Shown: one piece after another, positions 25,019 through 62,319 of the stretch
Position numbering within the stretch: position 1 is the stretch's first letter
How the letters are laid out: the number at the start of each line of letters is the position of its first letter
DNA from: Escherichia coli
Lineage (GTDB): Bacteria; Pseudomonadota; Gammaproteobacteria; Enterobacterales; Enterobacteriaceae
Length of the DNA stretch: 64,000 nt
Reading direction: 5' to 3' (one strand)
NCBI RefSeq assembly: GCF_009931435.1
Contig: NZ_CP043414.1
The notes under the pieces: generated by a model
The model's database searches: none
Seen by the model: the letters and a program-made list of their open reading frames with translations, nothing else
Told to the model about the DNA's origin: nothing
Translations under genes and position numbers: made by a program

Positions 25019-25381
25019 TGGTGGAGCTGGCGGGAGTTGAACCCGCGTCCGAAATTCCTACATCCTCGGTACTACATGCTTAGTCAGTCTTTACATTCGC
25101 TTGCCAGCTGCGGACGGACACGCCACTAACAAACTAGCCTGATTAAGTTTTAACGCTTCAACCCCAGGCAGGGCTTCCACGCGATCTCTTTTGGGTTTGA
25201 CCTCTCTTGATCCCCGTCCTAAGAGCGGAGGCTAGGGAGAGAGGGCTCTAAGCAGGTTATTAAGCTGCTAAAGCGTAGTTTTCGTCGTTTGCGACTATTT
25301 TTTGCGGCTTTTTACGAGGCCAACCGCCCCTCGGCATGCACCTTGGGTTTCGCAAATCCCGTCGAATCCAGAATCAGCCCC
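25019..25381 (-). ncRNA. ssrA: tmRNA (SsrA), 363 nt
   Basis: Reverse complement reads GGGGCUGAUUCUGGAUUCGACGGG ... GCAAACGACGAAAACUACGCUUUAGCAGCUUAA (tag reading frame) ... GGUUCAACUCCCGCCAGCUCCACCA. Confidence 0.97.
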
Positions 25382-43433: not shown

Positions 43434-44456
43434 TTATGTGGATGAAATGTGGATGCCTCCTTTTAACGGATTAAGTGAAATTGCATCCTGGAGGAAATCA
43501 GGAGCGAGGTGCGCATAGGTCATAGTTTGCTGGATCGTGGCGTGCCCCATAATTCGCTGGAGCGTAAGTATATTTCCTCCATTAATCATAAAGTGAGCAG
43601 CAAAGGTATGGCGTAGAACATGTACAGCCTGTCCTTTTGGTAGGTCTGGCTTAACACTGCGAAGCACCTTGCGATATTCCTCATAATTGACGTCAAACAA
43701 AAGGCCGGATTTCTTTGTTTTGATCTCACTAACAACTTCATCAGAGACAGGAATAATTCGAACTTTTCCGTTTTTAGTTTTGTTAAACGTCACGCGATTA
43801 TTGATGATGTGTTCCGCGCGCAGATTTTTCGCTTCTCCCCATCTCGCCCCAGTACTGAGACAAAGTAGCGTAATCCGCCGGGCATCACCGCTTACTGCAT
43901 CCAGTAATTTGGCGATTTCTTCCATGGTGAGATACGTCATTTCGGGTGATTTTCGTTTCAAAGAGGGGAGGGCGCGGAGCGGATTTTCTCCGTGAAATTC
44001 CCCGGCATTTGCCAGGAGTGTAAACATTCCTCCGAGATCCGACTCATCACGCCGAACAGTAGACTCTTTTACTCCCAAAGATAAACGGGAGCTTCGATAA
44101 GCGGCCATGAAACGAGCATTAATCTGGCTAACCCTTGGATCATTCATTTCTTTGATGATTTTTTTCAACCTGGTTAGAACGCCGTTAGCATATGGCTTAT
44201 TGCGTCCACCCAATTCCCACCATAACGGAAGCAGATCTGAGAGATGACGTTGCTCTGTTGGCTTTTCAAGCCATTCCTTATCGTGCATGTGGCTGAGAAC
44301 ATAACGCTCAAAGGCCACTGCATCTGCCTTTTTCTTAAAAATCCGCTGAATCCGACGTCCACTTCGGCCACGCGGTCTAACATCCACTTTATACCGTCCA
44401 CCATCGAGCGCTTTAATTGCCATTGGCAAGCCCTCCGGTGAAACGAGGAAAGACAT
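43434..44456 (-). CDS. int: Phage tyrosine integrase (P2-type)
   Basis: 340 aa; catalytic region ...HVLRHTFAAHFMINGGNILTLQRIMGHATIQQTMTYAHL (R-H-x-x-R...Y). Confidence 0.9.
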   Translation of the reverse strand: MSFLVSPEGLPMAIKALDGGRYKVDVRPRGRSGRRIQRIFKKKADAVAFERYVLSHMHDKEWLEKPTEQRHLSDLLPLWWELGGRNKPYANGVLTRLKKIIKEMNDPRVSQINARFMAAYRSSRLSLGVKESTVRRDESDLGGMFTLLANAGEFHGENPLRALPSLKRKSPEMTYLTMEEIAKLLDAVSGDARRITLLCLSTGARWGEAKNLRAEHIINNRVTFNKTKNGKVRIIPVSDEVVSEIKTKKSGLLFDVNYEEYRKVLRSVKPDLPKGQAVHVLRHTFAAHFMINGGNILTLQRIMGHATIQQTMTYAHLAPDFLQDAISLNPLKGGIHISST

Positions 44457-45232: not shown

Positions 45233-45574
45233 ATGAAACAGCAACGTAATTCACGCTTTCGTAATGGTGCTGAACGCCACGCTAACCGTTTCGCTACCAG
45301 TGCATCACGCAGCAACATCCGCTACAGCCTGAGTGATACACACGCAACGCCGGATGGCTACCCAGTAAAACAAATCGGCGAGCACGCTTGGCTGATTGAG
45401 AAAGCTGGAATCGTGATCCACAAATGCCCACGCAATCCGTTTACCGGAAACCGCATTTTTGCATTGAGCTGTGGCGACAATCAGTTTGGGCAGGATTTCA
45501 CATTATACGAAGCACTTCGCACGGTTGATCGTCTGCTTCGCGGGCAAAGTTTTATTAAACAGGCTGATTTATAA
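45233..45574 (+). CDS. Hypothetical phage protein (113 aa)
   Basis: Early-operon ORF. Confidence 0.5.
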   Translation: MKQQRNSRFRNGAERHANRFATSASRSNIRYSLSDTHATPDGYPVKQIGEHAWLIEKAGIVIHKCPRNPFTGNRIFALSCGDNQFGQDFTLYEALRTVDRLLRGQSFIKQADL

Positions 45575-47537: not shown

Positions 47538-47750
47538 ATGAACAAAAAGACCTGGTTTCGCGCATACATGTGGGCGCTGGTATGCGTCCTCGTTTCTCTC
47601 ATTCTGTATGTGGGGCTACTTCCCAGAATGATTTCATCAGACAGCTCCTTCCTGGTATTGCTGGGCATTTTTGTCGCCTTGCTGTACCCGGCGGGCGTTG
47701 TTCGCTTTTTCAGTAACTACATCAAAGCAATTATGGAAACCAAACAATGA
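47538..47750 (+). CDS. Small membrane protein (70 aa, two hydrophobic helices)
   Basis: WALVCVLVSLILYVGLL and FLVLLGIFVALLYPAGVV segments; stop overlaps next start. Confidence 0.5.
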   Translation: MNKKTWFRAYMWALVCVLVSLILYVGLLPRMISSDSSFLVLLGIFVALLYPAGVVRFFSNYIKAIMETKQ

Positions 47751-48571
47751 AAAAACTATTACCACTCATCCCTCTCCTGATGACCACACTTCTGGTTGGC
47801 TGTGACCGCGTGGAGCCGGGCAATGTAGGCATCAAAGTCAACAAACTGGGCGACGATAAAGGCGTCGGTGAAGTAGTTGGCGTTGGCCGCTACTGGACAG
47901 GCTGGAATACAGAGGTTTACATCTTCCCGACTTTCAAACAAATGAAGACTTACGATGAGCCGTTCAACTTCCAGATGAGTGACGGCACAACCATCGGCTA
48001 TCACATCGGCGTGGCCTACAAAGTTGATCCATCCAAAGTTACCACTGTGTTTCAGACCTACCGCAAAGGCGTGGATGACATTACCGACACTGACCTGCGC
48101 CAGAAGATCGCCGATGCACTCAACCGACTGGCCAGCAAAATGACCACCGATAAGTTTATCGACGGTGGCAAGTCTGAACTGCTGGATTCAGCACTTAAAG
48201 ACATTCAGTCAGAAATGACACCTATCGGCATTCAGGTCATGAGCCTCTCTTATGTCGGTAAACCGGAATATCCGCCAACCGTTATCGACAGCATTAACGC
48301 CAAAGTCACGGCAAACCAGAAAACCCTGCAACGCGAACAGGAAGTCAAGCAACGCGAAGCAGAAGCCAACATGTTGCGCGCAGAAGCTGCCGGACAGGCT
48401 GATGCCATTCGCACAAAAGCCCAGGCTGAAGCCGACGCCATTCGTTTACGCGGTGAAGCTCTGCGCCAGAATCCCGGCGTTATGGAGCTGGAAGCAATCA
48501 ACAAATGGAACGGCACGCTGCCGCAATACATGACCAGCAACACCGCTGTTCCGTTTGTTCCGGTGAAGTAA
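47747..48571 (+). CDS. SPFH/band-7 (prohibitin/HflC-like) domain lipoprotein
   Basis: Lipobox LLVGC; central band-7-like region; C-terminal Ala/Glu/Gln-rich coiled coil (REQEVKQREAEANMLRAEAAGQADAIRTKAQAEADAIR). Confidence 0.65.
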   Translation: MKKLLPLIPLLMTTLLVGCDRVEPGNVGIKVNKLGDDKGVGEVVGVGRYWTGWNTEVYIFPTFKQMKTYDEPFNFQMSDGTTIGYHIGVAYKVDPSKVTTVFQTYRKGVDDITDTDLRQKIADALNRLASKMTTDKFIDGGKSELLDSALKDIQSEMTPIGIQVMSLSYVGKPEYPPTVIDSINAKVTANQKTLQREQEVKQREAEANMLRAEAAGQADAIRTKAQAEADAIRLRGEALRQNPGVMELEAINKWNGTLPQYMTSNTAVPFVPVK

Positions 48572-49615: not shown

Positions 49616-52438
49616 ATGACGGCAGAGTACATCAGGGACTGGCAACAACCGCGCCACGCAGTGGGGCGTGAAGGAACGGGGATCCCCGCTCCTGAATCCG
49701 CGCTTTCCTCCTGGCTGGATGCCTACCGGGTAGAGAACGAGCGCCGCCAGGAAATGGCTGATGCGGCGTTCTCCGCCACGCCGCTGGGCAACCTGATTAA
49801 TAAAAGCCTGGACGCACAGGAAAAACAGGACAAAACCATCACACTGGCAGGAGACGCCAGAAAACAGGCACGCGGCGCAGTGGATGAAGCCATGACCTCG
49901 CTGCGCCTGCTGCCGTCCTATCTGCGCGATCCGCTTATTCGCCACCTCTCCTTCCTGCGCAAAAAACAGGAAGCCGATCGCCGGAAAGGCAAAAAGAGCT
50001 GGCAGGCGGAACGCTATGCACGCGGAACCCTGCGCAAAATATTCGAACGTCTGGACCGCACCGATCACCGCTGGCTGACACCGGGTTATCGCTCCCTTGC
50101 CGGACGCGAACGCCTGGACGATTTGCTTTACCTGCCGCAGCTCAACAAACACCAGATACAGACGCTGGCCACCATGACGGCGGCGATGTTCAGCAGCACC
50201 TTCGAAAAACTCTGCGATGGCTTTGGCGCGACTGATGGCGAACTGACCATGGATGTAACGCTGAAGGCGTATCAGATGCTGGCCCGCATGGCGTTACACC
50301 TGCACGCCATGCCTCCACATTATGACGCACTGACAACAGACAAAGACCGGAGGAACGAACCGGACACAGAGCTGCTGCCGGGCGCAATCCTTCGCCTGAC
50401 CTGTGCGGAATGGTGGAAACGCAAACTGTGGCTGTTACGTTGCGAGTGGCGGGAAGAACAACTCCGCGCCGCCTGTCTGGTTTCCAGAAAAACATCGCCC
50501 TATCTGAGCCAGGACGCGTTAAGCGAGTTTCGCGCACAGCGCGAGAAAACACGCGATTTCCTGAAAAGTTTCATGCTGGAAAACGAAGACGGGTTCACGA
50601 TTGATCTCGAGACAGTGTATTACGCGGGAGTAAGTAACCCGGTTCACCGTAAGGCAGAAATGATGGCCACCATGAAGGGACTGGAACTTCTGGCCGAAGC
50701 CCGTGGCGACAGAGCGGTGTTTCTGACTGTCACCTGCCCGTCAAAATACCACGCAACAACGGAGAACGGTCATCCGAACCCCAAATGGAACGGGGCCACC
50801 ATGCGCGACTCCAGCGATTACCTGGTTAACACGTTTTTTGCGGCGGTCCGCAAAAAACTGAACCGCGACGGCCTGCGCTGGTATGGCATCCGCACGGTGG
50901 AGCCTCACCATGACGGCACCGTGCACTGGCATATGATGGTCTTTGCTCATCCGGAAGAAATCGACAGCATCGTGGCCATCACCCGCGATATTGCCATTCA
51001 GGAAGACCGCCACGAGCTGGGCAATGATATTACTCCGCGCTTTAAAGTGGAGTATGTCGACGGCTCAAAAGGCACACCAACCAGCTATATCGCGACCTAC
51101 ATCGGGAAAAACCTGGACAGCCGCGCCGTGGATGGCATCGACCCGAAAACGGGCAAACCACGCGTTGACCACGAAACCGGAAAGTCAATGGCCGAGAGCG
51201 TGGAACGCGCCATCGGCTGGGCGCGCCTTCACCGTGTCCGCCAGTTCCAGTTCTTTGGTATCCCCTCCCGTCAGGTGTGGCGTGAACTGCGTCGCCTTGC
51301 CAGCCAGATGGCACGCAACCCGGAAGGCCCGCAACAGCTGAAGGATGACGCAATGGATGCGGTACTCGCTGCCGCTGATGCCGGATGTTTTGCCACCTAC
51401 ATAGAGAAACAGGGCGGCGTTCTTGTTCCACGCAAAGACTACCTGATTCGCACCGCCTACGACCTCGCAGATGAGCTGAACGATTACGGCGAACAGAGCG
51501 TACAGATTTACGGGATCTGGTCGCCACTCATCGGGGAATCCTCCCGTGTGTGCACGCATCCGGATAACTGGAAGCTGGTAAGACGTAAACCGGAAACGGA
51601 AGACAGCGCCCGCGAAAATGGTTTTGACCTTCAGGGCGGCCCTGCCGCCCCTTGGACTCGTGGCAATAACTGTCCCCGTGTACAGGAAACGGACAACAAC
51701 GGGACAGAACAGCCGGAAGAACGGCCAGCACCGTGGCCGCAGCTTCCTGACAGCGTTGACGTGAATGAATGGATGCGCTCACTGAAACGGCACGAACGCC
51801 GGGCGCTGATGCGTTCGCTGCGTGACAAACAGGCAAAAAACAGCAGTGATGAAATGCAGAACTGGACACAGAGCCGCAAACAGCCACGGCCTTTGCCTGA
51901 TAACCACGAGTTACTCGCTAAAGAATGGCGGGAGTCTGCTGAATCTCTCGGCCTGCATATTGGTGAACAGCAGATGCAGCACCTGTTACGGGGCGGCAGT
52001 CTGTACGTTGACGGCAGCATCATTGCACCGCAGGGATTTGAAATTGTACGCAAACCGGATACCCGCCCGGACAGCCGAATCACGCAGCTCTGGCAGCGCC
52101 TGAGCCGTAATCACGGCGTAAGCAGCACGGGGATCCGCCATAACCCGGTCGCCAGCTATCTGGAACAGCTGGGGGCATCAGACCCCGAAGCCGCCGCACG
52201 CCTGGCATCCACACTTCAGCAGGACCAGAACACCATGAAAACCCCCGTTACCGTGCTTTCTGACATGCTGCGCGCCATCCGTGACGCAGAGCACGCACAG
52301 AGAATCAGTGAAACAACTGAACGCGCCCGCCGCAAAGCAGACCTGCTGCGGGGTGGCCTGACCAGTGGAAACAAAAAACAGACAAAAACAGGATTCACAA
52401 ATCCCGTAAATGAGCAAAAAACGCGCCGTGATATATGA
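49616..52438 (+). CDS. Phage replication initiation protein (P2 gpA-family rolling-circle endonuclease), 940 aa
   Basis: HUH-type motif region VEPHHDGTVHWHMMVF; position after the early operon. Confidence 0.8.
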   Translation: MTAEYIRDWQQPRHAVGREGTGIPAPESALSSWLDAYRVENERRQEMADAAFSATPLGNLINKSLDAQEKQDKTITLAGDARKQARGAVDEAMTSLRLLPSYLRDPLIRHLSFLRKKQEADRRKGKKSWQAERYARGTLRKIFERLDRTDHRWLTPGYRSLAGRERLDDLLYLPQLNKHQIQTLATMTAAMFSSTFEKLCDGFGATDGELTMDVTLKAYQMLARMALHLHAMPPHYDALTTDKDRRNEPDTELLPGAILRLTCAEWWKRKLWLLRCEWREEQLRAACLVSRKTSPYLSQDALSEFRAQREKTRDFLKSFMLENEDGFTIDLETVYYAGVSNPVHRKAEMMATMKGLELLAEARGDRAVFLTVTCPSKYHATTENGHPNPKWNGATMRDSSDYLVNTFFAAVRKKLNRDGLRWYGIRTVEPHHDGTVHWHMMVFAHPEEIDSIVAITRDIAIQEDRHELGNDITPRFKVEYVDGSKGTPTSYIATYIGKNLDSRAVDGIDPKTGKPRVDHETGKSMAESVERAIGWARLHRVRQFQFFGIPSRQVWRELRRLASQMARNPEGPQQLKDDAMDAVLAAADAGCFATYIEKQGGVLVPRKDYLIRTAYDLADELNDYGEQSVQIYGIWSPLIGESSRVCTHPDNWKLVRRKPETEDSARENGFDLQGGPAAPWTRGNNCPRVQETDNNGTEQPEERPAPWPQLPDSVDVNEWMRSLKRHERRALMRSLRDKQAKNSSDEMQNWTQSRKQPRPLPDNHELLAKEWRESAESLGLHIGEQQMQHLLRGGSLYVDGSIIAPQGFEIVRKPDTRPDSRITQLWQRLSRNHGVSSTGIRHNPVASYLEQLGASDPEAAARLASTLQQDQNTMKTPVTVLSDMLRAIRDAEHAQRISETTERARRKADLLRGGLTSGNKKQTKTGFTNPVNEQKTRRDI

Positions 52439-52514
52439 AGCGCGCACAAAACAGGCGAAAACGGGATTTAAAAATCCTGTAACCGATTAATTAATCAACA
52501 TAAGGAAAAGCGAC

Positions 52515-53474
52515 ATGAAAATTTGTATCGACGACGGATCCACCAACATCAAGCTGGCATGGACTGAGAACGGCGAACGCCGCAACGCCATCAGCCCGAA
52601 CAGCTTCAAGTCAGAATGGTCTGCGCCGTTCGGTGGCACGCAGCCCGCGAACTACATGCTTGATGGCGTGCGCTATGGTTTTGATCCGGTCAGCGATCGC
52701 TTTGTCCAGACGACCGACACGCAATACCAGTACAGCGATGTGAATGTCATTGCCATTCATCATGCGCTGGTCAAATCAGGCATCACGCCACAGGAGGTGG
52801 ATGTGGTTGTCACCCTGCCACTGAGCGAGTATTTCGACACAAACGCACAGCCGGACATGGCCAACATCAACCGCAAAAAAGCGAACGTTATGCGCCCGGT
52901 GGAGTACCAGAACGGCGAGGCATTCACTATCCGTAACGTGCGGGTTATGCCTGAATCCATTCCGGCTGGCTTTAAAGCACTGGCTGACATGAGTCCGTTT
53001 GAATCCCTGCTGATTGTGGATTTGGGCGGAACCACGCTGGATGTGGCAAAGGTTCAGGGGCAACTGGCAGGTATCAGCCAGGTGTTTTGCGATCCACACG
53101 TAGGCGTTTCCCTGATGGCCGATGCCGTACTGTCGGTAATGGCCACTAACGGTATGCGCACCAGTCACCACATCGCCAATACCATTATCGAACATCGCCA
53201 CGATGAAGCCTGGCTGCGCCAGCACATCCACAATAACGCACATTACGCCAGCCTGATGGCTGTTATTCGTGAAAAGGAAGAAACACTGAAACAACGCGTG
53301 ATCCGCGCGCTGGCGGGTTTTTCGGGTTACGGGCGGGTGATGGTTGTAGGTGGAGGGGCAGAGATTGTGGCACCCGCTATCCGCGAAGCCTGCGGAGTTA
53401 ATGCGACTTTCATCGCGGACGGGGTGCCACAGTTTGCTCTGGTTAATGGGCTGTACGCAATGGACAAGGAGTAA
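52515..53474 (+). CDS. parM: ParM/StbA actin-like segregation ATPase
   Basis: Colinear similarity to plasmid R1 ParM: IDDGSTNIKL, ISPNSFK, YSDVNVIAIHHAL, RKKAN, VMPESIPAG, LLIVDLGGTTLD, GGGAE, LVNGLY. Confidence 0.85.
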   Translation: MKICIDDGSTNIKLAWTENGERRNAISPNSFKSEWSAPFGGTQPANYMLDGVRYGFDPVSDRFVQTTDTQYQYSDVNVIAIHHALVKSGITPQEVDVVVTLPLSEYFDTNAQPDMANINRKKANVMRPVEYQNGEAFTIRNVRVMPESIPAGFKALADMSPFESLLIVDLGGTTLDVAKVQGQLAGISQVFCDPHVGVSLMADAVLSVMATNGMRTSHHIANTIIEHRHDEAWLRQHIHNNAHYASLMAVIREKEETLKQRVIRALAGFSGYGRVMVVGGGAEIVAPAIREACGVNATFIADGVPQFALVNGLYAMDKE

Positions 53475-53478
53475 ATCA

Positions 53479-53793
53479 ATGACGACACCAACCAGACGGA
53501 TAAGTTTCTATCTGAAGCCCGCCGTCGTCAAGAGCGAACGGGAGGCGTGCAGTTACCTCGACAGCCTGCCAGCCTCCGAACGCAGCCGCGCACAACGCGC
53601 GGCTTTTCTGGCCGGACTGGCTCTTATAAAACGCACCCCCGCGTTGGCGTATTCGCTGGCAGAATGGTCAGAAGACGAAATACGGATGCCACCGCTACCA
53701 GTACAGCCTGAAAAACCGGCGCAACCAGCAGCAGACAGCGCCCCCCATATGCAGCAGGTGAAAAAGAATATTCAGGCGTTTTTCCCGAAGTGA
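53479..53793 (+). CDS. parR: ParR/StbB-like centromere-binding protein
   Basis: N-terminus RRISFYLKPAV...SYLDSLPASERSRAQRAAFLAGLALIKRTP resembles R1 ParR; immediately follows parM. Confidence 0.7.
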   Translation: MTTPTRRISFYLKPAVVKSEREACSYLDSLPASERSRAQRAAFLAGLALIKRTPALAYSLAEWSEDEIRMPPLPVQPEKPAQPAADSAPHMQQVKKNIQAFFPK

Positions 53794-53807: not shown

Positions 53808-54095
53808 ATGTCCACCATTACCAAAGAATGGTTACAACGTAAAATCACAGAGTTTAAATCGTGGCGCGAAGACATCCCGTTCGGTCTTGATGAAGACGAT
53901 CACAATATGTTAATCGCACTGGAAATCGCACTTGCATCACTGGAAGCAGAGCCAGTGGCATGGATGCACGCAAATAATCCTATTGGAATACCGGCGATAA
54001 CAAGAAGTAAAGATGTTGCAGACAGCTGGCGCTCTAAGGGATGGAATGTATTGCCTCTTTATTCACTGACCCGCTCCATCAATTTATGCCATTAA
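53808..54095 (+). CDS. Hypothetical protein (95 aa)
   Basis: ORF between parR-like and Rrf2-like genes. Confidence 0.45.
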   Translation: MSTITKEWLQRKITEFKSWREDIPFGLDEDDHNMLIALEIALASLEAEPVAWMHANNPIGIPAITRSKDVADSWRSKGWNVLPLYSLTRSINLCH

Positions 54096-54106
54096 TGGAA
54101 GTAATC

Positions 54107-54466
54107 ATGATGAAAGATAATTCCGGAAGCCAGCGTGCATCAGTTGCAGTTATGGTAATGATTAAATTTGTGAAACAGTACACCGGAAAGCCAATCTCGC
54201 TCCGGCAATTAAGCAAAGAAACCGTTTCACTGTCATATCTGGAGCAAATATTCAGATATTTACGGGAAAGTAGCCTGGTAAAAGCCACACGCGGCCCGGG
54301 TGGTGGATATATCCCGACAAAAGAAAATTACAGTGTTGGTGATATTGTCCGGGCAATGAAATGTTCCGGATTATATACACAGCACGTTATTCTGGCTGCA
54401 CTGGATAATATTTCTTTAACCAGCCTGCAGGAAGACACAAATTATCAGTTGTCTGCCATTGAATAA
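54107..54466 (+). CDS. Rrf2-family (IscR/NsrR-like) transcriptional regulator, apparently lacking the cluster-ligating Cys triad
   Basis: VSLSYLEQIFRYLRESSLVKATRGPGGGYIPTKENYSVGDIVRAM closely parallels the IscR core ISLSYLEQLF...GLV..VRGPGGGY; only one Cys in the C-terminal region. Confidence 0.7.
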   Translation: MMKDNSGSQRASVAVMVMIKFVKQYTGKPISLRQLSKETVSLSYLEQIFRYLRESSLVKATRGPGGGYIPTKENYSVGDIVRAMKCSGLYTQHVILAALDNISLTSLQEDTNYQLSAIE

Positions 54467-54534
54467 GAAAACCCGGAACGGGTGCGCAAATTCTTTGTGC
54501 GCCCGTTCCGGGTTGGACAAGCGAAGCGCGTCAG

Positions 54535-54792
54535 CTATCCGGCCTGCAACAACTCCAGAGCCATTTGTTTTTCTTCCGGACGCATCCGCTCAATCAACAG
54601 CTTTAACACACCATTCTCCAGCCCGCTGGGCACCAGTGTGTGCGAGTAGGTCAGATTCATCACCCAGGTATGTCCGCACTCGAGACGGGTGCAACGGTAA
54701 TACACATCAGCAAACTGATCGGTTTTCCAGGCTGTTTTCTCAATCACTGCATGTGCACCGCAGCAATGACATCGCGCTTTCTGTCTGCGCAT
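54535..54792 (-). CDS. Ogr/Delta-family zinc-finger late-gene activator (putative)
   Basis: CHCCGAHAV...YYRCTRLECGHTWVM (C-x2-C ... C-x4-C); GGAGG RBS upstream of ATG 54792. Confidence 0.6.
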   Translation of the reverse strand: MRRQKARCHCCGAHAVIEKTAWKTDQFADVYYRCTRLECGHTWVMNLTYSHTLVPSGLENGVLKLLIERMRPEEKQMALELLQAG

Positions 54793-54857: not shown

Positions 54858-55892
54858 TCACTCCATGGGTTCATCAAAATCAAGAATAAATTTCACCTCC
54901 CCCAGTCGTCTGATATCCGGGTCGCTGTTGATCCCCTCCATAATCAGGCGGCGCATCGGGATAACCTCATCCCTGTAATATGCCTCGCGGGATTTCAGTG
55001 GGTCACCAAGCCCGGCCGTATTTGCGGGAATGATGCCGGCAAGCCCGGGTGGAAAACGGTGCGCAACGAGCTGATCCTGGGCACTGATAGTTTTTATATT
55101 CAGGAACTCATCTTTTGTACCTGAATCTCCGATAGGGATCACCTTAACGCCTTCTTTGTCTCCGCCAGGTATATTGATAAACATGGATTTAAAATTGCCC
55201 GCCCCTTTTGACGCCTCTATCTTTTTACGGAATTCCGCCTCGAGCTCGGGATCCATGTCCGGGTCAGTGGAATACAGGATATAACCAAGATGTGCGCCGT
55301 TCTTGTAATACTTGCGGCGAAAGCGGGTGGCATCCACATTCAGCATGGCAGATTCCATCCCGTGAATATAATCCGGGACACCGTAAACCTGCTGTTGCGG
55401 GTCATAAATGGCCACGAACACTACTTCGCCTGGCGGGTAAACGAGATCTTCCAGTGCCGCCTGCACAATCACCGTGCCACCCTCGTTGTTACGCCGCAGG
55501 TACAGAGAAGGTAACGTATGCAGGCGCACCACTCGACCGAAGCCATTGCGCACTTTAAGCAACCCCATATCCCCGAATATCAGCAGATTGGTTACTGCTG
55601 CCGCCATGGCGGCGTGTGTCATACCACCACCCCCCCGAAAACCCTGCATGATCATATTGACGCGCGCACGCAATACCGCGCCGTGATACGGTGCGATATT
55701 GGACAACATGGCGAGATCCATGCGCTCAATGGGCGGCGTGTACCAGCCGTTATAGCCATCCCAGAGCGAGCCGTAATAACAGCCCCATGCAGCGACCGGT
55801 TCCGGGTCACCAAATTCAATAAAAGTCATTTTGCTGGCTGTTTTTTTTGCCACGCCATCGTGTAACACGGGGTATTTTTTCTTTTTACTCAT
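54858..55892 (-). CDS. Phage portal protein (P2 gpQ-like)
   Basis: 344 aa, same length and position as P2 Q, translationally coupled to the terminase gene. Confidence 0.75.
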   Translation of the reverse strand: MSKKKKYPVLHDGVAKKTASKMTFIEFGDPEPVAAWGCYYGSLWDGYNGWYTPPIERMDLAMLSNIAPYHGAVLRARVNMIMQGFRGGGGMTHAAMAAAVTNLLIFGDMGLLKVRNGFGRVVRLHTLPSLYLRRNNEGGTVIVQAALEDLVYPPGEVVFVAIYDPQQQVYGVPDYIHGMESAMLNVDATRFRRKYYKNGAHLGYILYSTDPDMDPELEAEFRKKIEASKGAGNFKSMFINIPGGDKEGVKVIPIGDSGTKDEFLNIKTISAQDQLVAHRFPPGLAGIIPANTAGLGDPLKSREAYYRDEVIPMRRLIMEGINSDPDIRRLGEVKFILDFDEPME

Positions 55893-61115: not shown

Positions 61116-61589
61116 ATGACGCAACTCGCCAGCCTGACGGCATTCATTGAAAACAATCTGCCGGCACGCGCACGCATTCCGTTCACCAGTGACATGGATG
61201 ACATCACGCTCGTTCCGTTTACGAAGTCGCTGGGGCACGGGCAGTTATGTACGCAGGTCCGAAAATATACGGCTTTTCTGCGATGGGACGCATGGCCCTA
61301 TCGTCAGCTCAATCCGGATTTGGTGTTTTCTCTGGTTGAAGCCTGGCTGGCAGACAACGGCGGCGACCTGCGCCAGCGCCTGGCACCGGATGCGCCAGCC
61401 GTTGACGTCGAAGTGGATGATGAAAATGAAGTGGCATGGCTGGAAATCAGTCTGCCGCTGGTTGATCCCATCACCCTGGTTGAGGACGAAAACGGCCCCA
61501 TCCCCAGAGGCGGGAAACGTTACCAGCTGGAAAAGCCTGAAATCTGGGTGGCTCAGGCGCATCAGCTTCACTGCCAGGTGATGCCATGA
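61116..61589 (+). CDS. Phage tail completion protein (gpR-like, putative)
   Basis: 157 aa immediately after head completion gene; assignment by size and position. Confidence 0.4.
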   Translation: MTQLASLTAFIENNLPARARIPFTSDMDDITLVPFTKSLGHGQLCTQVRKYTAFLRWDAWPYRQLNPDLVFSLVEAWLADNGGDLRQRLAPDAPAVDVEVDDENEVAWLEISLPLVDPITLVEDENGPIPRGGKRYQLEKPEIWVAQAHQLHCQVMP

Positions 61590-62299
61590 CGCGCCCCGTG
61601 ATTAACGAGTCACAACTCCGGCAGGTTCGTCGCGCCATCAGAGAGGCAGAACTTCCGCCGGCAAAGGCCAGAAAGCTGCTGGTTCGCATTGCGAAATACG
61701 GCCTGATACCGGCTGCACGACGCAATGTGAAAGCACAGCGAACACCGGAGGGGGCAGCCTGGGCACCACGAAAAAGACCGGATAAAGCCGGCGGCAGGTA
61801 TAAAAACAAAATGCTGCTGGGACTGCCGAAACTGCTGGCCATCAGGGTTGACGGCAGCGGGAAAAGTGTCCGCCTTTTCTTCAAAAAAGGGGATTACAAC
61901 ACCGGCTCTCATGGTGGGGCGGTCGCGTGGGTGCAACAGCACGGCGCAACCATCAAAGGCCGCGCCACAAAACGCCGGGACAGCGAAGCCATGCGCACCC
62001 GTCCCGCCACACGACGGCAGGCAGAACGCCTTCTTTCTCTGGGCTTTCGCGCCCCCGTCGGCGCAGTCAACAAAAAAAACGGACGCAGGGGACGCAGAAA
62101 GCCTTCTCTGAAATGGATTATGGAAAACATGAGTATGGCGCAGGCCGGACTGGTGATCAGCATTCTGAAAGGCGAGCAGAAAAAACGTGTATGGGAAATC
62201 AAAATCCCCTCCCGCGCATTTCTGGGAGCCAGCGATGCTGAATTTGCCCGCATTCTGGAAGCGCAGCTGCGCAGCCTGCATTACGGCGGCACGAGATAA
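61586..62299 (+). CDS. Phage virion morphogenesis protein (gpS-like, putative)
   Basis: 237 aa, basic, overlapping start; assignment by position. Confidence 0.45.
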   Translation: MTRPVINESQLRQVRRAIREAELPPAKARKLLVRIAKYGLIPAARRNVKAQRTPEGAAWAPRKRPDKAGGRYKNKMLLGLPKLLAIRVDGSGKSVRLFFKKGDYNTGSHGGAVAWVQQHGATIKGRATKRRDSEAMRTRPATRRQAERLLSLGFRAPVGAVNKKNGRRGRRKPSLKWIMENMSMAQAGLVISILKGEQKKRVWEIKIPSRAFLGASDAEFARILEAQLRSLHYGGTR

Positions 62300-62319
62300 C
62301 AAAATCAGGAGACAAACCA

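Follow-up and report, generated by a model that had tools for sequence, protein, structure and literature searches.

A putative actin-type partition cassette with paired palindromes in a P2-like prophage of Escherichia coli

Why would a prophage, whose integrated lifestyle makes partition apparently dispensable, carry partition genes resembling those of the low-copy plasmid R1? The question is raised by a P2-like (P88-type) prophage found in a 64-kb stretch of E. coli DNA, hereafter the window. The prophage is integrated, as the tyrosine integrase gene at its left end (43434-44456, minus strand; phrog_1, E 8.8e-71) adjoins the host genes pheL and pheA. The original prediction placed a parM/parR pair between the gpA-type replication gene and the portal gene, which we could confirm, and both proteins belong to the R1 family.

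The parMR interval and its gene products

The left neighbor of the pair, rep (49616-52438, plus strand, stop codon at 52436-52438), encodes a 940-aa protein of the P2 gpA family, which matches phrog_91 (“nicking at origin of replication”) with an E-value of 1.4e-276 and which a near-identical genome lists as a replication endonuclease. This rolling-circle endonuclease of the early operon is the only replication gene annotated in the prophage, where no plasmid-type replication initiator is annotated. parMR starts 76 bp downstream from rep on the same strand and is followed by two variable cargo ORFs, also on the plus strand. The one at 53808-54095 (95 aa) matches phrog_660 and phrog_60, both of unknown function, and had no match in Pfam. 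The other, at 54041-54466 (119 to 141 aa depending on the start codon; phrog_24072), carries an Rrf2-type winged-helix N-terminal domain with a score of 53.5 bits against NCBIfam rrf2_super, which is under the cut-off of 73.3, and its product is labelled an RrF2 family regulator in the near-identical genome. A long inverted repeat at 54471-54515, read directly from the sequence, separates the rep-parMR-cargo genes from the convergent terminase-portal-ogr genes and is likely a bidirectional terminator; the terminator scan gave a match on the minus strand at 54483-54471. Beyond it lie an Ogr/Delta-like zinc-finger late activator gene (54535-54792, minus strand; PF04606, E 1.2e-12), which bounds the variable interval on the right and has the same place in the Plesiomonas and Hafnia loci, and the portal gene of P2 gpQ type (54858-55892, minus strand), assigned from the annotation of the near-identical genome. 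Syntenic loci of other genera show the Pfam Phage_portal domain at this position.

The parM gene (52515-53474, plus strand; phrog_691, E 2.3e-90) encodes a 319-aa actin-like segregation ATPase, in which residues 1-157 match Pfam StbA_N (E 2.5e-82) and residues 159-316 the ParM C-terminal domain (E 2.5e-68). The predicted colinearity with R1 ParM was borne out by an end-to-end alignment to PDB entry 1mwk (residues 2-316 versus 2-318, E 1.9e-92). The motifs IDDGSTNIK, MPESIPAG, DLGGTTLD, and GGGAE are all intact, and the nucleotide-binding motifs are identical to those of R1. parM is under strong purifying selection, with an omega of ~0.04 (dN 0.003, dS ~0.08), an intact 319-aa ORF in 81 of 82 related loci and 99% conservation of the protein.

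The 104-aa product of parR (53479-53793, plus strand) had been described as ParR-like, which holds: it is a clear member of Plasmid_stab_B (PF10784, E 2.7e-24) and is 45% identical to the N-terminal domain of R1 ParR (residues 6-63, E 7e-16). A profile of this protein and its relatives matches the pB171 ParR structure 2JD3 over residues 6-85 (E 8e-13). The fold of 2JD3 (ParR/StbB) is of the ribbon-helix-helix dimer-of-dimers type, and the prophage protein is a predicted ribbon-helix-helix, centromere-binding adaptor. An N-terminal β-strand (RRISFYLKP) is followed by a variable linker rich in Pro and Gln and by a C-terminal motif (KKNIQAFFPK), of which KKNIQAFF lines up with KKNAMKLI of R1 ParR, the Asn being invariant. 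Essentially no variation is seen in RRISFYLKP, the DNA-reading strand (dN 0.007), and the remainder of the protein falls into allele classes sharing only 57 to 63% identity, the allele found here belonging to a minority class, “A1”. ParM is truncated once among the related loci, and so is ParR.

Palindromes and transcription upstream of parM

A duplicated palindromic element had been predicted upstream of parM and is present within a few bases of its predicted position. It consists of two 38-nt units on the plus strand, at 52372-52409 (repeat family D1, inverted pair I1) and at 52445-52482 (found by repeat and palindrome search and conserved in position), which are 82% identical, start 73 bp apart and contain one 20-bp palindrome each. 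Dyad 1 (52388-52407, ACAGGATT-CACA-AATCCCGT) falls in the first unit, which is located inside the 3' end of rep, so that the last ~65 nt of the gene overlap it, and dyad 2 (52461-52480, ACGGGATT-TAAA-AATCCTGT) falls in the second. The repeats are not due to chance, since the 20-bp consensus ACGGGATT-N4-AATCCCGT with at most three mismatches has three matches in the window against 0.16 expected (0 of 100 shuffles reach three), and the only two perfect matches to GGATT-N4-AATCC in the 64 kb are both found here. The third consensus match, outside this region, is single and weak and probably a chance occurrence.

Dyad 1 is found at -127 from the parM start codon in ~78 of the 82 related loci, and together with dyad 2, 73 bp away at -54, it is kept in almost all of them regardless of the ParR allele. 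The arms and the spacing (72 to 73 bp) are also kept in Plesiomonas and Hafnia despite diverged flanks, with the GGGA/CCC arm columns invariant across E. coli and these two genera. In a locus with a different rep C-terminal region (L041) the homology to the window restarts where the first repeat begins. This boundary is only suggestive, because a P88-like prophage devoid of parMR (L095) retains dyad 1 inside rep. Judged by position and conservation, the palindromes are the best candidates for the parC-like sites that the original prediction suggested they could be.

A scan of the rep-to-parM interval revealed no plus-strand terminator and no promoter with at least 9 of 12 consensus matches. 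Below this threshold, with 8 of 12 matches, a weak promoter candidate is found on the plus strand at 52467-52498 (-35 TTTAAA at 52467-52472, a 17-nt spacer, and -10 ATTAAT at 52490-52495). Its -35 element falls inside dyad 2, and three genera have kept the motif ATTAATCAA at 52490-52498. From this weak negative evidence we infer that most transcription of parMR would probably be read-through from the early operon of rep, which would also set the timing of its expression. The candidate promoter could possibly add to the transcription of parMR and be occluded by ParR.

Distribution and relation to known systems

The module had been called unexpected in a P2-like prophage, which does not hold. 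It is present in 1303 of 5426 complete E. coli genomes (24%), has 93 to 96% nucleotide identity to phage P88 and its relatives, and is also carried by phiSM and 520873; the NCBI annotation pipeline already assigns names to parM and parR. About a quarter of P2-like phages have a putative partitioning system at the gpA-gpQ hotspot (Rousset et al. 2022), and P88 has been flagged as possibly both episomal and integrative (Pfeifer et al. 2021). Approximately 97% of the matching E. coli records cover at least 80% of a query from the end of rep to parR, and the cargo downstream from parR varies between 1.36 and 3.44 kb. The module is thus a common and fixed feature of the lineage, a possibility that the original prediction had allowed for; a literature search for experiments on the parMR cassette of P2-like phages returned none. 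The gene order gpA-ParM-ParR-cargo-portal is retained in Plesiomonas, Hafnia, Serratia, and Enterobacter, with ParM identities of 63, 62, 58, and 54%, respectively. In a tree the ParM proteins of the five genera form a single clade, which is specific to P2-like phages; the closest plasmid ParM is at most 53% identical and the closest plasmid ParR only ~43%. Among 50,697 phage records, ParM matches were found only in P88-like phages and in D6.

The ParM proteins of P88 and other Xuanwuvirus phages (Peduoviridae), Citrobacter phage phiSM and prophage 520873 share 98 to 99.7% identity with ours, and the P88 family carries the module at the same site between the replication endonuclease and the portal gene. 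The prophage belongs to the P88/Xuanwuvirus family in its early and head region. It differs from P88 in its tail module, which is unlike the P2-type tail of P88, in its cargo (P88 carries a ClpX-zinc-finger-like ORF and others) and in ParR, which in P88 is of class “B” and 57% identical to class “A1”.

With the type II, actin-like parMRC (stbAB) system of R1/R100 (IncFII) the cassette has in common the order centromere-parM-parR, the C-terminal KKN-x3-hydrophobic motif of ParR and a similar ribosome-binding context (ATAAGGA). The candidate centromere is different: R1 parC has ten direct iterons of 11 bp, arranged as two blocks of five on either side of a strong promoter, whereas the prophage has just two palindromes of 20 bp at a spacing of 73 bp, the first of which lies within rep, and no strong promoter. 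The centromeres of pB171 likewise contain many short repeats. Furthermore, ParR is 104 aa compared to 116 aa in R1, and the replicon is an integrating rolling-circle phage rather than a low-copy theta plasmid.

The D6 locus is a second instance in a tailed temperate phage, with an R1-family ParM (StbA) and a StbB-type ParR. The P1-like D6, 91 kb in size, is a true plasmid prophage. In the tree its ParM is placed outside the P2-like clade, and its upstream repeats are TCTCA-type direct repeats. The annotators of D6 remarked on the likeness to the P88 StbA protein.

An analogous case is SrpMRC of the SXT/R391 ICEs, likewise a type II system on a normally integrated element, which was shown to stabilise that element while it is transiently excised and whose expression occurs only together with the excision functions (Carraro et al. 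2015, PMC4489591). Its centromere, located upstream of the M gene, is built from a small number of repeats, both direct and inverted. SrpR differs from the prophage ParR in having no recognisable ParR domain, and the carrier is a conjugative element, not a phage. By analogy, partition of a transient circle as in SrpMRC is the most likely role of the prophage parMR.

What the cassette may act on

We regard it as somewhat better than an even chance that the module is a functional type II (ParMRC) partition cassette of the P2-like phage lineage acting on a transient circle. ParR would bind each 20-bp palindrome, probably as a dimer of dimers, and the 73 bp between them equal about seven helical turns and therefore place both on one face of the DNA. 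The resulting complex would capture growing ParM-ATP filaments via the conserved C-terminal tail of ParR, and the filaments would push sister circles apart. Because these phages have an integrase and are almost always chromosomal, a transient extrachromosomal circle is the most likely substrate, be it in the interval from infection to integration, following excision or induction, or during rare episomal carriage. Several points count against partition. Characterised type II centromeres have far more sites than two. Phages of the P2 type replicate in cis by the rolling-circle mode; partition would seem superfluous with the many copies of lytic growth, and a lone unreplicated circle cannot be partitioned. 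Moreover, there are co-resident prophages that share ParR class and palindromes, and these are evidently not limited by the system.

Instead of serving inheritance, ParMR might position or spread replicating phage DNA as a lytic-cycle cytoskeleton that aids replication or packaging, a role we consider unlikely. The location just behind rep across a terminator-free gap and the strong purifying selection on a gene that would idle when integrated are both consistent with it, and the actin-like AlpC and its adaptor AlpA of prophage CGP3 are reported to be needed for efficient viral DNA replication (PMC4446434, PMC5539076). However, the closest relatives of the ParM family are true plasmid partition motors, and most other P2-like phages (P2, 186, and others) replicate well without the cassette. 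Somewhat less probable still is that the cassette gives P88-type phages a long-term, low-copy plasmid prophage state as an alternative to integration, as put forward by Pfeifer 2021 and Rousset 2022. D6 uses an R1-family ParMR (with 47.8% ParM identity), and the record NZ_CP148288.1, a “plasmid” circle of 34,461 bp, contains an entire P88-like genome in which rep, parMR, and the integrase gene are present. Yet no other stand-alone circle was found in a set of 72,556 plasmid records, and this one could be phage DNA, excised or in the course of replication, that was assembled in circular form. Of the 1443 module copies in complete E. coli genomes, 1441 lie in the chromosome and two on plasmids, and at least one of these two is part of a prophage integrated in a 129-kb plasmid. 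The gpA-type endonuclease is the only annotated replication gene, and the P2 gpA-type early operon is repressed in lysogens. Prophages of the same ParR class also share one genome. We disfavour a stable plasmid state.

The suggestion that the module does something other than partitioning, such as defence, fared poorly. The interval houses old and tin in P2 and is the site of many defence systems (Rousset 2022), and the diversity of ParR alleles, unusual beside a 99% conserved ParM, could reflect an arms race in which incoming plasmids or phages are harmed, e.g. by partition-mediated incompatibility or by ParR binding to foreign DNA. Against this, neither ParM and ParR nor the two ORFs that follow them had a match in PADLOC; unlike the variable hotspot cargo downstream from parR, the module has a fixed place beside rep in five genera and is under purifying selection. 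Neither the palindromes nor the strand with which ParR reads the DNA differs between ParR classes, the palindrome consensus is absent elsewhere in the window except for the one weak match, the nearest plasmid ParR is distant, and the R1 centromere sequence is unrelated. We find this role very improbable. Hardly credible, and strongly disfavoured, is a non-functional relic of an old plasmid-phage recombination that is passively carried. Partition seems dispensable to an integrated phage and loss variants do occur (L095 and the two truncations), but the selection on parM, its intact ORF, the conserved palindrome spacing and a gene order retained across five genera, down to 54% protein identity, all speak against decay.

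Partition of a transient phage circle is thus the reading we prefer. The presence of parMR in a P2-like prophage is real, and it is common and already remarked upon in the literature. What the present analysis adds for this phage family is a ParM clade specific to P2-like phages, a gene order shared by five genera, purifying selection on parM, palindromes fixed in position, and a strong bias towards chromosomal carriage.

The parM and parR genes

The original prediction of an R1-type parMR module was correct with respect to both genes, and the identity of the feature as a ParMRC-type cassette is secure. The cassette follows the gene of a 940-aa replication endonuclease of the P2 gpA type (rep; 49616-52438, plus strand; phrog_91, E 1.4e-276) and starts with parM (52515-53474, plus strand), whose 319-aa product combines the Pfam StbA_N domain (E 2.5e-82) with the ParM C-terminal domain (E 2.5e-68). 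Residues 2-316 align with the R1 ParM structure 1mwk (E 1.9e-92). In this alignment the motifs for nucleotide binding, IDDGSTNIK, DLGGTTLD, and GGGAE, are either identical to those of R1 ParM or carry conservative changes; the phosphate-1, phosphate-2, and adenosine motifs of a type II ATPase are intact. The adaptor gene is adjacent, as in type II systems, with the start codon of parR (53479-53793, plus strand) located 4 nt past the parM stop codon. The 104-aa ParR/StbB adaptor belongs to PF10784 (E 2.7e-24) and shares 45% identity with R1 ParR across residues 6-63, and a profile of ParR and its relatives matches the pB171 ParR structure 2JD3 (E 8e-13).

Selection on the two genes was analyzed in a sample of 82 related loci, 80 of them from IMG/VR. 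An intact 319-aa ParM was found in 81 of the 82, and parM shows a dN of 0.003 and a dS of 0.08, corresponding to an omega of about 0.04. ParR is split into clearly separate allele classes, A1 (the window, 53479-53793), A2, and B (phage P88), with a mutual identity of 57-63% among the comparison loci L006-L085, while the ParM proteins next to these divergent ParR alleles are 98-100% identical across the same loci. For codons 1-64 of parR the omega is 0.29 and the dS is 0.39, compared to the dS of 0.08 for parM. This pattern suggests that the ParR classes are old alleles that have been shuffled by recombination.

The N-terminal strand of ribbon-helix-helix proteins reads DNA, and in ParR this strand (RRISFYLKP) is essentially invariant with a dN of 0.007. 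It is followed by a variable Pro/Gln-rich linker and, at the C-terminus, by the pattern x-x-N-[IA]-x-x-[FL]-[FI], which all allele classes share and which recurs in four other genera. The C-terminus, x-x-N-I-[QR]-A-[FL]-F-P, aligns with the R1 ParR C-terminus KKNAMKLIN, and from this alignment and the conservation we consider the C-terminal peptide a candidate ParM-docking motif. A conserved strand, a variable linker, and a conserved C-terminus together make up the layout expected of a ParR protein.

Paired palindromes and transcription upstream of parM

The paired repeats that had been predicted upstream of parM were also confirmed, with slightly wider coordinates. A 38-nt element occurs twice, at 52372-52409 and 52445-52482, with the copies being 82% identical and 73 bp apart from start to start, and each copy contains a 20-bp palindrome (dyad 1, 52388-52407; dyad 2, 52461-52480). 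A perfect GGATT-N4-AATCC is present at these two sites only in the whole 64 kb window, and the 20-bp consensus, when up to 3 mismatches are allowed, gives 3 matches in the window versus 0.16 expected. A match on the host chromosome at 25343-25362 (TTGGGTTTCGCAAATCCCGT, 3 mismatches) is probably due to chance.

In the E. coli loci the palindrome consensus is ACGGGATT-N4-AATCCCGT with four variable central bases, and the two copies are found at positions -127 and -54 relative to the parM ATG in nearly all of these loci. CGGG-N10-CCC(G) dyads are located at the equivalent positions in Plesiomonas and Hafnia, with spacings of 72 and 73 bp and diverged surroundings, and the invariant columns of the cross-genus alignment concentrate in the palindrome arms. 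Since 73 bp is close to seven helical turns, both sites would be on the same face of the DNA. We take the two conserved palindromes as a candidate parC, or centromere, on the basis of sequence conservation and position. The parC of R1 consists of ten direct 11-bp A-rich/CCC iterons as opposed to the two 20-bp palindromes of the present cassette, and a subclade from Serratia and Enterobacter carries a different pair of inverted repeats of 14-20 nt; the architecture is therefore a variant and not of the R1 type. Homology to the R1 centromere was considered and dropped, with only A-richness and the ribosome-binding context being common to the two regions. A co-variation between the palindrome sequence and the ParR allele class was not found either, the same consensus being present in all classes.

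Three comparison loci differ in this region. In L082 (around 3925-4000) exactly 73 bp between the repeat units have been lost naturally, leaving a single hybrid palindrome and an altered rep C-terminus next to intact parM and parR genes. L041 carries another rep C-terminal region, and its homology to the window resumes where repeat 1 starts. L095 (NZ_CP115358.1), a P88-like prophage devoid of parMR, retains dyad 1, which lies within the rep coding sequence; its homology to the window stops a few bases past the rep stop codon, and a frameshifted ead/Ea22-like gene (L095 3501-4250) takes the place of parMR and dyad 2. Because L095 retains dyad 1 inside rep without having parMR, the L041 junction is suggestive at most of a module boundary at repeat 1.

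With respect to expression, parMR is co-oriented with rep and located 76 bp downstream from it. Between rep and parM we found neither a sigma-70 promoter with at least 9 of 12 matching positions nor a plus-strand terminator. The best promoter candidate, with 8 of 12 matches, has its -35 sequence TTTAAA inside dyad 2 and its -10 sequence ATTAAT at 52490-52495. The motif ATTAATCAA (52490-52498), which includes this -10 sequence, recurs across three genera. Transcription of parMR might accordingly arise by read-through from the early operon, possibly supplemented by a weak promoter that ParR would occlude. Read-through expression, which we infer from this gene arrangement, is the weakest link in our interpretation. 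No ParM entry was found in the supplementary data examined from a transcriptome and proteome paper on ciprofloxacin-treated EHEC, which mentions CP-933T.

Prophage context and distribution of the cassette

The prophage starts with an integrase gene adjoining the host pheL/pheA genes (43434-44456, minus strand; phrog_1, E 9e-71) and continues beyond the window boundary. The closest complete genome, E. coli 7_33_46A (NZ_CP074819.1, locus L002), carries a prophage at this integration site to which the window shows 98-99.3% identity. There, a 2.5-kb ISEc23 insertion of the IS66 family (L002 3699-6232) interrupts a DUF4761 gene of the early region; the window prophage is without ISEc23 (45454-45461) and its DUF4761 gene is intact. 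The early region also encodes a 274-aa SPFH-domain lipoprotein (47747-48571, plus strand; phrog_200), and a comparable gene in the P88 early region is annotated “lipoprotein / serine protease”. The tail module (window 61116-63919; L002 21895-38060) encodes a phrog_907 sheath (DUF2586) and contains a separate tape-measure gene as well as reordered baseplate genes. It is not of the P2/P88 type, so the prophage joins a P88-like early, replication, and head region to another contractile-tail module. The P2 cos sequence GGCGAGGCGGGGAAAGCAC had no match in the window with up to 3 mismatches.

Directly after parR follows orf95, encoding 95 aa with no assigned function, and a plus-strand ORF (54041-54466) that overlaps it by 55 nt and comprises no more of an Rrf2/IscR-type regulator than its N-terminal winged-helix part (NCBIfam score of 53.5 bits against a cut-off of 73.3). 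A near-perfect inverted repeat of about 18 nt (AACCCGGAACGGGTGCGCA ... TGCGCCCGTTCCGGGTT; 54471-54515) separates the convergent gene sets and is probably a bidirectional terminator. Beyond it, the Ogr/Delta-like, portal, and terminase genes are found on the opposite strand. The Ogr/Delta-like zinc-finger gene (54535-54792, minus strand) lies directly downstream from the portal gene and delimits the variable interval on the right, as it does in the Plesiomonas and Hafnia prophages (L087 8126-8386 and L088 7843-8109); in P2 itself, ogr is located elsewhere.

The stretch from the rep end through parM and parR is 93-96% identical to P88, other Xuanwuvirus records, Citrobacter phage phiSM, phage 520873, and others, and the matching phage records annotate the gene as ParM or partition protein. 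The cassette is present in 1303 of 5426 complete E. coli genomes (24%), at 1441 chromosomal places versus 2 plasmid places, and at the plasmid place examined the prophage has inserted into a 129-kb plasmid. Of the 1304 matching records, 1261 retain 80% or more of the module. In PLSDB this ParM lineage, at an identity of at least 95%, occurs in six records only and each time beside the phage rep gene; five of these are very large replicons, and the sixth is a 34,461-bp circle comprising an entire P88-like genome including the integrase.

Outside E. coli the closest ParM proteins are those of Plesiomonas (63% identity), Hafnia (62%), Serratia (58%), and Enterobacter (54%), all encoded in the same order of gpA, ParM, ParR, short cargo, and portal. 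A ParM from Mangrovibacter with 50% identity is located in a plasmid-like region, and among true plasmid ParMs the identity does not exceed 53%. In a rough neighbour-joining tree without bootstrap the five P2-like ParMs form one clade, apart from those of R1, IncK, D6, and others. Depending on the locus, 1357 to 3440 bp lie between parM and the portal gene, which places the variable hotspot cargo after parR and makes parMR behave as a near-core gene pair of the lineage. This deep conservation of gene order and the strong purifying selection argue against the cassette being a relic. A Dickeya chromosome (L093 5001-6373) carries an R1-family ParM/ParR pair with 49% ParM identity inside an apparent integrative conjugative element (TraG_N, TraU, integrase), a further case of a type II partition locus on integrated DNA.

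The cassette as such is already known: it is annotated in RefSeq and has been discussed with the same hypothesis in two papers (Rousset 2022; Pfeifer 2021), and our literature search found no experimental study of it. According to Rousset et al., roughly one in four P2-like phages has a putative partitioning system at this hotspot. What is added here is the phage-specific ParM clade, the two-palindrome centromere candidate with its fixed spacing, the diversity of ParR alleles, and the 1441:2 split between chromosomal and plasmid places.

Possible roles of a partition cassette in an integrating phage

One reading is that the phage is maintained extrachromosomally like the phage-plasmids P1, N15, SSU5, and D6, and P88 has been flagged as a phage that may exist in an episomal as well as an integrated state (Pfeifer et al. 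2021). The 1441 chromosomal versus 2 plasmid places do not show such a maintenance, and the prophage annotation contains no initiator of the Rep_3, RepA, or RepFIB type but only the gpA-type endonuclease (Phage_GPA in the relatives). The near-exclusive chromosomal location, the integrase, and the lack of an annotated plasmid-type initiator all speak against the idea that the phage normally persists as a stable plasmid. The position between rep A and portal Q, where P2 carries the accessory defence genes old and tin, had led the original prediction to consider a role other than plain partitioning. The evidence speaks against a defence cargo: PADLOC gave no match for ParM, ParR, orf95, the Rrf2-like ORF, or the Ogr-like ORF, and the turnover characteristic of hotspot cargo is not seen, with at least 80% of the module in 1261 of 1304 records, one gene order in five genera, an omega of 0.04, and the variable part located downstream from parR. 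Avoidance of incompatibility between co-resident prophages was also considered; the class pairs observed (B/B, B/A1, and A1/A1) give it no support, three pairs being too few for an exclusion.

The prophage has an integrase, a chromosomal site, and its own parMR, and is in this respect an integrative element with a type II locus like those carrying SrpMRC, which partitions the transient extrachromosomal form of the SXT/R391 elements (PMC4489591). By analogy, partitioning of a transient extrachromosomal phage circle would fit the observations best. The main rival is a positioning role in the lytic cycle, similar to that of the actin-like AlpAC system of prophage CGP3 (PMC4446434, PMC5539076). 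A more far-reaching reading, which includes both lysogeny establishment and the period after induction, is a tentative one that we hold to be somewhat improbable as a whole: P2-like phages of Enterobacterales may keep their own ParMRC clade with a minimal two-palindrome centromere, serving not plasmid life but as a cytoskeletal device for the extrachromosomal genome at either of these stages. Such a device could ensure that each daughter cell receives copies before integration takes place, or it could space the replicating circles.

Roughly one in four E. coli genomes contains the cassette within an integrating prophage, where it is under strong purifying selection. If the more far-reaching reading is true, the cassette would represent a small and tractable temperate-phage “spindle” together with a minimal type II centromere. 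The two candidate palindromes, always 73 bp apart or nearly so, would offer a compact system for studying the capture of ParM filaments by ParR. Should it be the transient circle that is segregated, the idea from SXT/R391 that integrative elements also partition would extend to tailed phages, with a bearing on the establishment of lysogeny and on the boundary between prophages and phage-plasmids.
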